DNA of 63,118 nucleotides, filler included, from Octopus bimaculoides (Eukaryota), in the NCBI RefSeq assembly GCF_001194135.2. It is 8 parts of 7 records of this genome, joined end to end, with 100 filler letters (N's around TTAATTAATTAA, not from the genome) between each part and the next. Parts side by side here need not be neighbours in the genome. Positions count along the whole stretch, not along the records: positions 8,074 to 17,778 come from NC_068984.1; positions 17,879 to 23,760 come from NC_068983.1; positions 23,861 to 31,668 come from NC_068988.1; positions 31,769 to 43,257 come from NC_068981.1; positions 43,358 to 49,372 come from NC_068983.1; positions 49,473 to 60,421 come from NC_068998.1; 2 more parts are not named here. One strand, 5' to 3'. The notes under the pieces were generated by a model. It was not told the DNA's origin. It ran no database searches and saw only the letters and a list, made by a program, of their open reading frames with translations. This document shows positions 17,572 through 49,571 of the stretch, piece after piece. The stretch's first letter is position 1. Each line of letters opens with the position of its first letter. The position numbers and the translations under genes were made by a program.

Positions 17572-17770
17572 GGAGGGAGAATGTACGAAAAAAACAACAA
17601 TAGACGAGGACAGGTGGTGTAAACAACAAAAGGATGTATTAGTATGACGCTCGGGAATACGGAAAGTCTTTAACGTTTCGAGCTACGCTCTTCAACAGAA
17701 AGAATACGGAGAAAACAAGGAGAAAAACACGGAGGAAAAAAATTGAATGGTGTTTGGTCAACGATCTATC
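17572..17770 (-). mobile_element. Short non-coding hammerhead-bearing element (family H1) in (TA)n
   Basis: Flanked by (TA)n on both sides; homologous to 49473-49571; contains the hammerhead below. Confidence 0.75.
17667..17703 (-). ncRNA. Minimal type-I hammerhead ribozyme (U6 core variant)
   Basis: UCUUU-CUGUUGA-A-GAGC(GUA)GCUC-GAAA-CG-UU-AAAGA: 5 bp helix I, 4 bp helix II, palindromic ACGU helix III. The second copy at 49473 has GUC at the cleavage triplet. Confidence 0.7.
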
Positions 17771-18267
17771 ATATATATNNNNNNNNNNNNNNNNNNNNNN
17801 NNNNNNNNNNNNNNNNNNNNNNTTAATTAATTAANNNNNNNNNNNNNNNNNNNNNNNNNNNNNNNNNNNNNNNNNNNNATATATATGCGTGTGTGTGTGT
17901 GCGTATGTATTCATATATCGAAAAGGGAGATTGCGGAAAATTTCTTTATTCACCATTACAAATGTATCATTGGTTAATAGGTTTACAAAATTATGACAAA
18001 CATATAAGAGAAACGTGTAAGACGTCTATTAGAAATTCTTCAGGCGGAGAATTAAAAGAAATGCAAAATTTACATTTGGATGAAGCGTTTATATATGGTT
18101 AGAAATAGTAATATTTCTATTACATGTGTGTGTGTGTATGTGTGTGTGTGTTTGGCTTCTTGCTCTTGTGATAGTATTTCTTGTTGTCTTGTCATCTTTA
18201 TTGTTTTATTTGATTTGGGGGGTTTTTTTACCTCTTGTACGAAGTGCAATTAATACTTTTAATTATA

Positions 18268-18539
18268 CGGCCAGCAAATTTGAGGGGAAGGGGCGAGTCG
18301 CTACCATCAACCCCAGTAGACGACTGGTAGTTTACTTTAGCCTCCTTGAAAAGTAAAGTTGAGGGAGGGGGCTAGTCTATTATATCGACTCCTGTACTCA
18401 ACTTGTACTTATTTTATTTACTGCGAAAGTTTGAGCGGCACAGTTGACCTTGGCAGAATTTGAACTGAGAGCGTCAAACTGGAAGAAACGCTGCTAAATA
18501 CTTTGTCCGGCGTGCGAACGGTTCTGCCAGCTCACCGGC
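18268..18539 (-). mobile_element. Two adjacent SINE A copies (3' fragment + near full length)
   Basis: Ends with GTTCTGCCAGCTCACC (revcomp of head). Confidence 0.8.
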
Positions 18540-18770
18540 TTTAAATGCATTTAATAATCTTTTCTATTAAAGGCACAAGNNNNNNNNNNNNNNNNNNNNN
18601 NNNNNNNNNNNNNNNNNNNNNNNNNNNNNNNNNNNNNNNNNNNNNNNNNNNNNNNNNNNNNNNNNNNNNNNNNNNNNNNNNNNNNNNNNNNNNNNNNNNN
18701 NNNNNNNNNNNNNNNNNNNNNNNNNNNNNNNNNNNNNNNNNNNNNNNNNNNNNNNNNNNNNNNNNNNNNN

Positions 18771-19700
18771 TGGTGGTGCTTGGTGGGTCGTGATGGTGGT
18801 GGTGGTGGTGGTGGTGGTGGTGGCGGTGGTGATCGTCGTCGTTGTCGTCGTGGTGCTTGGTGGGTTGTGGCAACGATGGTGGTGTGCTTGGCGGGTGGTG
18901 GTGGTGATGGTGGCCGTAGTAGCGTTGTGGTTTGGGTGGTGGCTGTGGTCATAATCCCCGTTGTGACGATGACGATGATGATGACGATTGGGTGGGCGGT
19001 TGTTTGTTGTGCTCTTGAAGGATGTTTCTGGGTGCGCCTAACTTGCAAAGCAGAAACAACAGCACCAACAACAATAGCAACAACATAATATAACAAAAAA
19101 AAAAAAGAAAAAAGAAAAGCTGCACAAATGCAGACATTGGGTTTAAGCCAACAACATTGTTCGTCCATGGCGTAAAGGAAGAAGAAATGAAGTTCAGAGC
19201 ACGATTAGAGATGACGCGGGGCGGGGGGAGGCGGAGGCGGAGTCCGGAGGTCTGTGAGACAATAGCCATAGATAGAGGGGGAGTAATAACAATAACGATG
19301 GTGGCGGTGGAGGTGGTGGCGATGGAGGTGGTGGCGGCGGCGCTGAGTAAACTTCCTTGGCCAATATTACTATTGTCTGTAAATGCTAAGACAGAGGGAT
19401 AGAAAAAGAAAAGGAAAGAAAGAAAGGCGGGAAAGAAAGAAAGAAAGAAAGAAAGAAAGAAAAGCAGAAAGAAGGACATAGAAGACAGAAAGAAAGAAGG
19501 AAAGAAAGAAAGAAATAGAAGAAAGAACGGAGCGAAAGAAAGAAAGAAAGAAAGAAAGAAAGAAAGAAAGAAAGAAAGAAAGAAAGAAAGAAAGAAATAG
19601 AAGACAGAGCAGAGAGAAAAAAAGAAATAGAAGAAAGAACGGAGCGAAAGAAAGAAAGAAAGAAAGAAAGAAAGAAAGAAAGAAAGAAAGAAAGAAAGAA
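18771..19700. repeat. (GGT)n-like low complexity, then (GAAA)n with an internal ~110 bp duplication
   Basis: Directly visible; GAAATAGAAGAAAGAACGGAGCGAAAG occurs at ~19512 and ~19624. Confidence 0.9.
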
Positions 19701-46290: not shown

Positions 46291-48952
46291 TGTTTTTGTT
46301 ATCTACATTGCAACGATGGAATTTTGTATCTTTGTTAGAAACCATCTTCTTCTCCAGGGGAAGAATTTGAATAATCAAAAACAGAAAACATGCGTGTGTG
46401 CGTACGTGCGTGCGTGCGTGCGTGTGTGTGTGTGTGTGTGTGTGTGTGTGTGTGTGTGTGTGTGTGTGTGTGTGTGTGTGTGTGTGTGTGTGTGTGTGTG
46501 TGTGTGTGTTTTGAATAAAATGCAGAAAAGCCTAAATTTTACAGATAGGCACATCATATAATAATTTGCAAGTTTCATTTTTGAATTTCTGGATTAACGT
46601 TTCCTTGTAAGCTTCCTCATTAAACAACCTCCTAATTACCATGGACACATATATATATATATATTGATATTTTATTTCCATCTTTTTATTAATGTATTTG
46701 TTCCTTACGCTGAGTTCTTGAAATATACACTACTTGGAAATGGAGAAGAATTTTGCGAGAATTTTCTTCACAAATGTACCTATCTTCACATTGAAGTAGT
46801 GTGGTTGCTACACTACTTAGCAGCATAACCAGTCATGATAAAAACAGGAAAAAAAAGTAGAAAAAAGCTATGATAAACACAGGAGGCAATTTCTATCCTA
46901 TTCGCCCGACGTACGCTTCATCCTTGTGATTGTTTGCTTCTTTTGCAATGAGGTTTCCATTTATCAATTGGGTTCTAAACCACTACAGCTCATCAAGGGA
47001 ACACTTTATTGCATTATGTGAGACGGATCGAATGCAGAAAATACAAGGAACCGCAACGGTGAAACATACGGAGGGAACAAATTATAAAAACCGTGTCTTG
47101 TGTTTACCGTACTTTTTCATACATATACTTGTGTGTGTGTGTGTGTGTGTGTGTGTGTAGTGTACATATTTAACTAAGTTGACTATCGCAGTTAATAGTC
47201 GCTTGACATTGTTTAAAGACGGCAGATTGGTGCGTGTGTGTATATGTACGCGTGTGATGGAGGGAAGGCGGAAAGGGGAGCTCGCGTGGCACAAGTCTCT
47301 ACACGTGTGTGCAATCTCAAAGTTTTGTTTGAAATTAGCCTAAAGTTCTTCCCAGGCGAGGCAAGATGGCAACTAGACGACAGAAGTGAAATTAAGACCG
47401 CTTGGCGTGTCTCTGTATATGCATATGTGGGTGTGTGTGTATTTATCTATGTGTGTGTGTGTGTGTTTGTGAGTGTACGTATATATATATAAATATATAT
47501 ATATATATACTTCTCTATGTAAGCATGTATGTATATACTTGTGTGTGTGTTTAATTGTGTCTATATATATGGTCTGTGCATGATCGTCATCTTGTTTGTA
47601 GTAGTAGTAGTAGTAGTAGTAGTAGTAGTAGTAGTAGTAGTAGTAGTAGTAGTAGTAGTAGTAGTAGTAGTGGCGGTGGTAGGCTGAGTGGTGTTTGTTG
47701 TAATAATGGTGGGCGGGGTATTTCAAAATGAAAATAAAAAGAAAATCTCATTTCTCGCTTTTATTTGTCTTTTGTAAAATCCGTCTAAAATCATTGTTGT
47801 TGTTGTTGTTGTTGTTATAGCAGTAGTAAATGTTCTTATTATTATTATTATCATTAATACTATTATTATTATCTTCAGTGATGTTTGCTGTTGTTATTAT
47901 TTCTCCATCTTAATGGATTAGTCGTTTAATAAACACACACATACACATTCTCTCTCTCTCTCTCTCTCTCTCTCTCTCTCTCACACACACACACACACAC
48001 ACACACTCGGTTTTTTTTTTAATCTTATCTNNNNNNNNNNNNNNNNNNNNNNNNNNNNNNNNNNNNNNNNNNNNNNNNNNNNNNNNNNNNNNNNNNNNNN
48101 NNNNNNNNNNNNNNNNNNNNNNNNNNNNNNNNNNNNNNNNNNNNNNNNNNNNNNNNNNNNNNNNNNNNNNNNNNNNNNNNNNNNNNNNNNNNNNNNNNNN
48201 NNNNNNNNNNNNNNNNNNNNNNNNNNNNNNNNNNNNNNNNNNNNNNNNNNNNNNNNNNNNNNNNNNNNNNGTCGTCGTCGTCGTCGTCAGCAGCAGCAGC
48301 AGCGGTCGCTCCTGCCAAGCGGTCGCGTGTTCGCTTTGGACTGCGGCACGTGCCTCCGTATATTGGGCTGTTTAACAGCATCTATGTCTGCTACGAAACT
48401 ATTCATGACGACTCAGGCAAACATCAACTAATATAATCGAAGATCTATCAATTAGGAGAAAGGGAAAGAAACGAAGATGTATTAATGTTTTGTTTTGTTT
48501 TTTCTTTATGCTTTATTTCTTTAATTATTTCTCGGGCCCCGAATACTTAATTCATAGGTAAAGAAAAGAAAAAGGAAAAAAGAAAGAAAAACAGAAGCAA
48601 AGGGTCCCGCGTTTTTGAACGCGACGACAACTCCGTTTTTCGTTGCCTCCCTCTGTCGGCTGCCAGGCACGCGTACCAGCATCTGGCAACAGAACTGTTG
48701 TCCCACACACACATACACAGTGAGCACTGAACGCTGAATATTGTCGAATACAAAACAAACCTGGTCGGTCTCGCATCGTATGCGATCATACATGCAACGT
48801 GGCTCTTGAAAAAGTTTGCGCATGGATTTCCAAATCACACACACACACACACACACACGGTCGTCTGTTTCTCTCTTGTTACAATTAAATGTTTGAAACT
48901 TACCAGTCAGCCATATACGTCTCATTTTCTTTCTTTTCAATTTCGTTTCATA

Positions 48953-49346
48953 GTCGCAGCCATGGCTGTGTGGTAAGACGTTTCCATTTTTTTTTTTTCA
49001 ACCACATGCTTCCAGGTTCAGTCCCACTGCATGGCACCTTGAGCAAGTGTCTTCTACTATAGATTCGGGCCGACAAACGCCTTGTGAGTGGATTTGACAA
49101 ACGAAAACTGAAAGAAGCTTGTCCTATGTGTATATATGTATATTTTTTCTTTTACTTGTTTCAGTCATTTTGACTGAGGCCATGCTAGAGCACCACCTTT
49201 TGTCGAAAAAATCGACCGCAATACTTATTTTTTGTAAGACTAGTACTTTATCGGTCTTTTTTGCCGAGCCGCTAAGTTACGGGGACTTAAACACACCGAC
49301 ATCGCTTGTCAAGCGACGGTGGGGAGACAAACACAGACACACAAAT
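48953..49346. mobile_element. SINE B head (+, 48953-49128) abutting SINE B tail (-, 49148-49346)
   Basis: Family B motifs in opposite orientations. Confidence 0.85.
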
Positions 49347-49472
49347 ATATATATATATATATATATATATATNNNNNNNNNNNNNNNNNNNNNNNNNNNN
49401 NNNNNNNNNNNNNNNNTTAATTAATTAANNNNNNNNNNNNNNNNNNNNNNNNNNNNNNNNNNNNNNNNNNNN

Positions 49473-49571
49473 GTCAAAGACTTTCCGTATTCCCGAGCGT
49501 CATACTAATATATACTTTTGTTATTTACACCACCTGTCCTCGTCTGTTGTTATTTTTTGTATATTCTCCCA
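49473..49571 (+). mobile_element. Second copy of family H1, starting at the GTC cleavage triplet at a gap edge
   Basis: GTCAAAGACTTTCCGTATTCCCGAGCGTCATACTAAT..ACACCACCTGTCCTCGTC matches the revcomp of 17572-17674. Confidence 0.85.

Follow-up and report, generated by a model that had tools for sequence, protein, structure and literature searches.

Short hammerhead-bearing insertions, probably non-autonomous Penelope-like elements, in a stretch of the Octopus bimaculoides genome

Metazoan Penelope-like elements (PLEs) carry minimal hammerhead ribozymes in their pseudo-long terminal repeats (pseudo-LTRs). As described in the accessible text of Cervera and de la Pena (2014; PMC4209133), these share a type-I motif with an extra base before helix II and a palindromic or absent helix III, they occur mostly as single copies and sometimes as opposite-strand pairs 100–700 base pairs (bp) apart, and they are predicted to cleave as dimers. 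PLE insertions have a signature of their own, made of a partial tandem, an inverted 5′-truncated copy and an optional tail of 30–40 nucleotides (nt), and are described with ATT or (TA)n targets and a 9-bp duplication (available portions of Arkhipova et al., 2013, PMC3846280; Craig et al., 2021, PMC8557442; Frangieh et al., 2024, PMC11167929). In vitro, the protein of the PLE Poseidon nicks at ATT and reverse transcription starts at two RNA-internal sites; the Poseidon hammerhead needs the protein for cutting, is dispensable for insertion and gives no ends in RNA-seq though the PLE is active (PMC11167929), and what the hammerhead contributes to PLE transposition is described as unclear (PMC8557442). 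Non-LTR retrozymes are known from coral, mussel and axolotl (PMC7229834), and retrozymes have been argued to be non-autonomous PLEs (Li, Clavereau and Pollet, 2026; bioRxiv 10.64898/2026.07.22.740005). In Octopus vulgaris, 190 PLE families account for 6.83% of the genome (PMC13282606 supplement), and one octopus PLE, Hydra-1_oBim, is tabulated with a hammerhead and a (TA)n target (PMC8557442 supplement). Here we analysed a stretch of 63,118 nt from Octopus bimaculoides (assembly GCF_001194135.2; hereafter the window), which holds three families of short hammerhead-bearing elements, H1, H2 and H3, and a deleted PLE without a ribozyme, H4.

H1–H3 are most likely new families of non-autonomous PLEs or pseudo-LTRs, of a kind already described (PMC4209133, PMC7229834 and bioRxiv 10.64898/2026.07.22.740005, in their accessible text), and H3 is retrozyme-like in build. 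It is quite probable that H2 and H3 are short non-coding, non-autonomous PLEs for which a PLE reverse transcriptase (RT) and GIY-YIG endonuclease act in trans, and that H1 is either the same or a solo pseudo-LTR. The features of the three families are the following:

24151–24348, minus strand: H2 arm 1, about 1.3 units of a 147-nt unit; tailless 3′ end in (TAT)n; core UUGUGGA at 24190–24230.
24432–24612, plus strand: H2 arm 2, about 1.15 units of a 157-nt unit, head-to-head with arm 1; core CUGUGAA at 24489–24529; 3′ end about 43 nt longer (tail, 24569–24612).
24317–24476, no strand: 75-nt perfect duplicate around a 10-N gap; 24317–24391 equals 24402–24476 (75/75 identical).
38790–39202, minus strand: H3 non-coding unit, 352 nt plus a 61-nt terminal redundancy (38790–38850 equals 39142–39202, 61/61), inserted in the (TA)n tail of a dispersed repeat resembling a short interspersed nuclear element (SINE).
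39012–39054, minus strand: H3 type-I hammerhead; intact core CUGAUGA; 6-bp helix I atop a stem of about 45 bp; extra C and A next to helix II; helix III palindromic; triplet GUC.
39199–39238, plus strand: H3 inverted 5′ copy of the element's 3′ end (38/38 identical), running into a 384-N gap.
17572–17770, minus strand: H1a, solo pseudo-LTR-like element of 199 nt between (TA)n tracts; 91% identical to H1b over 100 nt, with a common 3′ end.
17667–17703, minus strand: H1a minimal hammerhead; helix I of 5 bp, core CUGUUGA (A6U), extra A, helix II of 4 bp, loop-less palindromic helix III, GUU triplet; dimer fold not favoured.
49473–49570, plus strand: H1b, 3′ half of a second H1 copy, cut upstream of the core by an assembly gap; runs from a GUC triplet to (TA)n, with no visible core.

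Both H2 and H3 were inserted as 1.2–1.3 head-to-tail copies together with an inverted 5′ copy. H2 displays the whole PLE signature: the partial tandem that forms a pseudo-LTR is present in both arms, the 5′ end has an inverted 5′-truncated copy, and the tail is about 43 nt long. The first two parts are found in H3, and H4 has all three (tail of 32–35 nt) plus a 9-bp target duplication. The targets are (TA)n for H1 and H3, with both H1 copies stopping at the same place in the repeat, and (TAT)n for H2. Tandem, inverted copy, tail and targets are thus like those of described PLE insertions, which differ from the units found here in that these measure 147–352 nt. The 75-nt duplicate in H2 is most likely an unmerged assembly overlap; with it set aside, H2 is a single (TAT)n insertion whose two head-to-head arms are 92.6% identical and share one unit junction. 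A preliminary description of the window, made from the sequence alone, had attributed the families to Penelope machinery, and this link gained support from the tandems and inverted copies of H2 and H3, the 30–45-nt tails of H2 and H4 and the PLE open reading frame (ORF) remnant of H4. It had also taken all three families to be non-autonomous. Because the head-to-tail unit junctions leave no room for an ORF, this is supported for H2 and H3, and the H3 junction recurs in other copies; the support does not extend to H1, which may be a solo pseudo-LTR. As described earlier, H1–H3 contain no recognizable ORF (no Pfam family matched their frames), all adjoin (TA)n or (TAT)n, and share no similarity outside the ribozyme, the longest common match being at most 14 nt. 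The picture of a linked community did not survive, as the insertions are independent and lie in a repeat-rich window.

To these structures H3 adds the build of a retrozyme. Like animal non-LTR retrozymes, which in the accessible text of PMC7229834 and bioRxiv 10.64898/2026.07.22.740005 are non-coding, self-pairing units of 150–450 nt with less than 45% GC and a type-I hammerhead, the H3 unit is non-coding, has 43% GC and folds strongly on itself (z = −8.7 sense and −6.4 antisense against shuffles), with the ribozyme on top of the stem of about 45 bp. The 45 nt upstream pair with the downstream arm, five G-U pairs included. The non-coding H2 unit, at 147–157 nt, agrees with the retrozyme type by size only. 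The retrozyme part of the preliminary description nevertheless gained no support here, in two respects that also set the window apart from animal retrozymes: no locus has two ribozyme-bearing units in direct tandem, and the RNA reads, from libraries that may have been poly(A)-selected, show neither cut ends nor signs of abundant circles.

Hammerheads were searched with a descriptor scan of three core patterns, with 60 dinucleotide shuffles per pattern as the null. Motifs with a palindromic helix III were found at 39012–39054 (minus, H3), 17667–17703 (minus, H1a), and 24489–24529 (plus) and 24190–24230 (minus), both in H2; the shuffles gave 0/60 such matches for each pattern. A relaxed scan returned six sites in the window, the four of H1–H3 and two poor ones, where 100 shuffles averaged 0.36 and never exceeded 2. 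The hammerhead motifs reported earlier are therefore real, and the sole intact core is that of H3. In a type-I core test (C3 U4 G5 A6 N7 G8 A9 ... G12 A13 A14 A15.1 ... U16.1 H17, with helices I and II) only H3 passed; likewise, the strict scan found one hammerhead in the window, H3, and H1a appeared once A6 was freed. H1a deviates by A6U, the H2 motifs by A6U plus G8A or C3U and by one damaged helix each, and the core of H1b is hidden by the gap. Consequently the CUGNNGA core earlier ascribed to every family does not fit H2 (CUGUGAA and UUGUGGA); H1a reads CUGUUGA, the canonical CUGAUGA is confined to H3, and H1b holds no core. A loop-less palindromic helix III, also described for all, was confirmed in H1a but not in H3, where it consists of 2 bp and a 2-nt loop. 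A covariance-model check gave no support: neither the 138 Rfam matches across the window nor those of local scans (7, 3 and 2) included a hammerhead family, and all H1–H3 motifs were unmatched. The Rfam microRNA matches can be attributed to hairpins and microsatellites.

Changes at A6 reduce hammerhead activity, as reported for A6C in the accessible part of PMC3088659. When isolated cores were folded as dimers, the hammerhead form of H3 (−21.0 kcal/mol) came within 1.4 kcal/mol of the dimer optimum (−22.4), whereas that of H1a reached −9.3 against −22.7, and those of H2 reached −5.2 and −7.2 against −16.6 and −21.2. The ribozyme of the present H1 and H2 copies is probably weak or dead. U6 is common to both H2 arms, and A6 = U in H1a and both H2 arms, together with the lack of a visible flanking 3-kilobase ORF, distinguishes H1–H3 from the PLE hammerheads in the available text of PMC4209133. 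The extra C and A of H3 also occur in one tabulated PLE hammerhead (PMC8557442 File S2, readable part). In metagenome contigs, the A6U core pattern matched three loci; two look like chance coding matches, and one (L003) is a genuine minimal hammerhead, present on its contig as two diverged repeat copies (72–98 and about 1040–1120), one with U6 and its sister with the canonical A6. Since these copies differ at A6, A6U can be copy-level decay, and a reading of A6U as a conserved variant was left unsupported.

On the model of published PLE biochemistry, H2 and H3 may have been inserted as follows. The PLE protein would nick AT-rich DNA, and reverse transcription would begin at one of two RNA-internal sites, giving ends with or without the tail; the two start sites in the accessible text of PMC11167929 would therefore explain the tail. 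Slightly more than one unit would be copied, a second priming event would produce the inverted arm, and the ribozyme would be inherited together with the pseudo-LTR. Mobilization in trans would use ATT-type targets for H2 and H4 and (TA)n for H1 and H3.

Reads provided family evidence for H3 only; four read runs were mapped onto one permuted H3 unit. The unit is partly present in 20 runs from 10 studies and four organisms, with no RNA run among those that the run search listed, and H3 is an abundant family in reads. DNA contig depth, which is not copy number, is maximal on the ribozyme core and drops about 200-fold on the 5′ arm and at the unit junction. At two places, 11 and 9 variant DNA contigs nevertheless span the junction, as do 24 and 30 RNA reads and two contigs from organism C; 8 DNA contigs stop in (TA)n at the identical 3′ end. 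The 43-nt ribozyme has 1 (in loop 2) of 40 listed variable positions, with about 5 expected by length. Selection probably still acts on the H3 ribozyme, which would cut as a dimer, between 39018 and 39017.

In two RNA-seq runs, 411 of 12,895,792 and 408 of 11,974,664 records came from H3 (about 33 reads per million), with both strands alike and depth continuous across the predicted cut; the reads of these runs showed neither cut-site ends nor a pile-up of molecule starts or stops. Fourteen and 25 reads leave H3 into (AT)n 30 nt past the junction, against the 24 and 30 that span it, and nearly all junction reads carry one variant set, present in organism C too; they therefore come mostly from one linear transcribed copy. 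The H3 RNA is probably mostly uncut, linear read-through from genomic copies rather than circles, and no sign of circles was seen in the two runs, where poly(A) selection, if used, would hide them. Beyond the 3′ end (39142), 77 and 63 RNA reads run into one common sequence (agreement 0.8), which may be a tail, part of a longer element's body or the sequence flanking a single well-expressed copy. One junction-bearing sequence type (39079–39171) has transcripts in both organisms A and C and passes into (AT)n at one common point, suggesting that the insertion is old, shared and located within a host transcript.

Several findings weigh against trans-mobilized, non-autonomous PLEs. An autonomous partner of H1, H2 or H3 was not found in the window, the collection or the protein searches. 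H1 shows no partial tandem, and no inverted arm is seen in H1a (in H1b it is hidden). H1 and H2 are known here from their window copies. The gap conceals the tail and target duplication of H3, and the summed contig depth (not copy number) at the H3 junction is about 2,900 compared with 915,000 on the core, so the core may lie mostly in other subfamilies or in the ends of autonomous elements. Covariation in the long H3 stem is mixed, with pairing kept at 7 and broken at 6 of 13 listed, unphased paired variants. Concerning the missing partner, the window holds no ORF with RT and GIY-YIG beyond the N-terminal remnant in H4, with 7,023 bases hidden by gaps; Pfam found neither domain in 148 window frames (147 of the 313 listed plus one H1 frame), and tblastn with H4 homologues of at least 290 amino acids (aa) matched nothing else in the window. 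For H1 and H3, stretches gave 0 matches in the sequence collection and frames gave none in protein searches. H1 is likely a non-autonomous PLE like H2 and H3 or the solo pseudo-LTR of an autonomous PLE.

We weighed three other explanations. That the motifs are chance matches or assembly artefacts is extremely unlikely: gaps do adjoin H1, H2 and H3, the H2 duplicate is a likely artefact and Rfam was hammerhead-negative, but no shuffle gave a palindromic match, the 7% divergence between the H2 arms is not that of a mis-join of one read set, and for H3 the artefact reading is already refuted by its presence in 20 runs of 10 studies with depth highest on the core. Less easily dismissed, though still rather unlikely, is that all families are by-products of autonomous PLEs, truncated at the 5′ end or internally deleted, made once each and not self-propagating. 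H4 appears to be such a by-product and a solo pseudo-LTR would fit H1; compared with its core, the 5′ arm and junction of H3 are rare, and loose read ends reveal other upstream sequences at 39060. Minimal hammerheads of animal genomes, moreover, are mostly single and ascribed to truncated PLEs (PMC4209133, accessible text). Single events, however, do not readily account for an H3 junction that recurs, in DNA and RNA of two organisms, in sequence types unlike the window locus, nor for the one unit junction in both H2 arms, and the G-U-containing pairing of the H3 upstream 45 nt looks like that of a non-coding RNA unit.

The remaining explanation makes H3 a true non-LTR retrozyme, whose tandem copies would be transcribed, cut by the hammerhead and closed into accumulating 352-nt circles that serve as the insertion template. 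The unit size, GC content and strong self-pairing recall mussel retrozymes of 350–390 bp (PMC7229834, in part), the core is intact with a favourable dimer fold, and an insertion of more than one unit would be expected from reverse transcription round a circle. Junction reads relative to reads just past the junction amount to about a fifth in RNA and about 2% in DNA contig depth, two measures that are not comparable. We nonetheless regard this as improbable, given that no window locus has two ribozymes in direct tandem, that the RNA, at about 33 reads per million, has equal strands, no end pile-up and unbroken depth at the cut site, and that its junction reads derive mostly from one linear copy. 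Copying of H2 and H3 in trans by PLE proteins thus remains our preferred reading.

H4 is not among the families described earlier and comprises the following:

43779–44187, minus strand: H4, internally deleted Penelope/Poseidon-type element; 321-nt unit plus 88-nt redundancy, ORF remnant at 44188–43868, ribozyme absent.
44186–44229, plus strand: H4 inverted arm; 3′ end 32–35 nt shorter than that of the direct arm (tail).
43773–44245, minus strand: whole H4 insertion; 9-bp duplication at 44245–44237 and 43781–43773, the upstream copy 7 nt from the inverted arm.

The 9-bp duplication starts with ATT, and the ORF reads through the pseudo-LTR as in described PLEs (available portions of PMC3846280, PMC8557442 and PMC11167929). 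The H4 frame is 64% identical to the protein P0001 over 78 aa, relatives of which were not found in viral and genome contigs, and the 78-aa remnant has 343 relatives at E ≤ 0.001. RVT_1 matched in 7 of 10 relatives tested, above the Pfam cut-off in 5, and four full-length relatives among those listed share a C-terminal motif that we take to be GIY-YIG-like. With relatives of this kind, H4 is a deleted Penelope/Poseidon-type element.

The two direct copies of H4 become identical at the same base (44187 and 43866), and the ribozyme is absent from both. Among 18 H4 homologues with at least 40 residues upstream, 5 read through two motifs, P-[DE]-[DE]-G and [PT]-K-[RP]-x, whose codons are compatible with the two halves of a hammerhead core; no protein of the same family as H4 was found to read through the ribozyme. 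Counted back from a conserved YG, the last residue of the second motif is at 33, 35, 35, 35 and 37 residues (two of these homologues belong to one cluster) and the start of H4 at 33, which would therefore place both 5′ ends at, or up to 12 nt behind, the putative cut site. This coincidence, noticed post hoc at one locus where the ribozyme is deduced at the protein level, suggests a route that we propose with considerable doubt: H4 might record hammerhead cleavage in vivo, with RT starting from the tail, running off at the cut 5′ end, jumping to the RNA 3′ end and running off again. Cleavage would then define the template and create the pseudo-LTR, and H3-type mini-elements would be retrozymes using the same route in a cephalopod. 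Alternatively, the shared 5′ start of H4 could stem from deletion by microhomology instead of ribozyme run-off. In H2 the 5′ end lies 5–7 nt upstream of the cut site and therefore points to an uncut template there. Should genomic copies prove to start predominantly at the cut site, as H4 hints, assemblies by themselves would suffice to test the role of the hammerhead; judged by title and abstract, we found no literature on PLE truncation at the hammerhead cut site.

With respect to published octopus elements, the tabulated hammerhead of Hydra-1_oBim differs from those in the window, and 14-mers of H1–H4 were not found in the readable text of the PMC8557442 supplement. Cephalopods are not treated in the accessible text of PMC7229834 and bioRxiv 10.64898/2026.07.22.740005, whose supplements may list cephalopod families, and ribozymes are not mentioned in PMC13282606 and PMC8967140. 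Outside Dfam, Repbase, subscription papers and two supplements, we found no literature on cephalopod retrozymes. The tail and inverted arm offer a structural argument, beside the published phylogenetic one, for PLE proteins moving animal retrozymes, and H3 is a clean, abundant and transcribed substrate for studying dimer cleavage and circles.

The window, eukaryotic and AT-rich, abounds in microsatellites and dispersed repeats and has 32 gaps. At gaps (e.g., 17823–17834 and 49417–49428), a spacer of 12 bases recurs between paired 44-N runs; it is likely a scaffolding mark, not genome sequence. A Mariner-type transposase fragment lies at 8661–8936 on the plus strand (Pfam Transposase_1, E 1e-20), and a 130-aa frame at 2147–2536 (plus), without a Pfam match, looks by eye like a DNA transposase. 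Two frames, at 36506–36865 (minus) and 25457–25768 (plus), resemble C-terminal pieces of long interspersed nuclear element proteins, with a protein-atlas lead for the first and a weak zf-RVT match in the second. At least three SINE-like dispersed families occur in many copies at 70–88% identity (e.g., 12965–13146, 26991–27209, 34662–35100, 38610–38790, 39648–39877 and 49129–49344), and a 42-nt tandem repeat at 32589–32725 has 3.3 copies at 84%.

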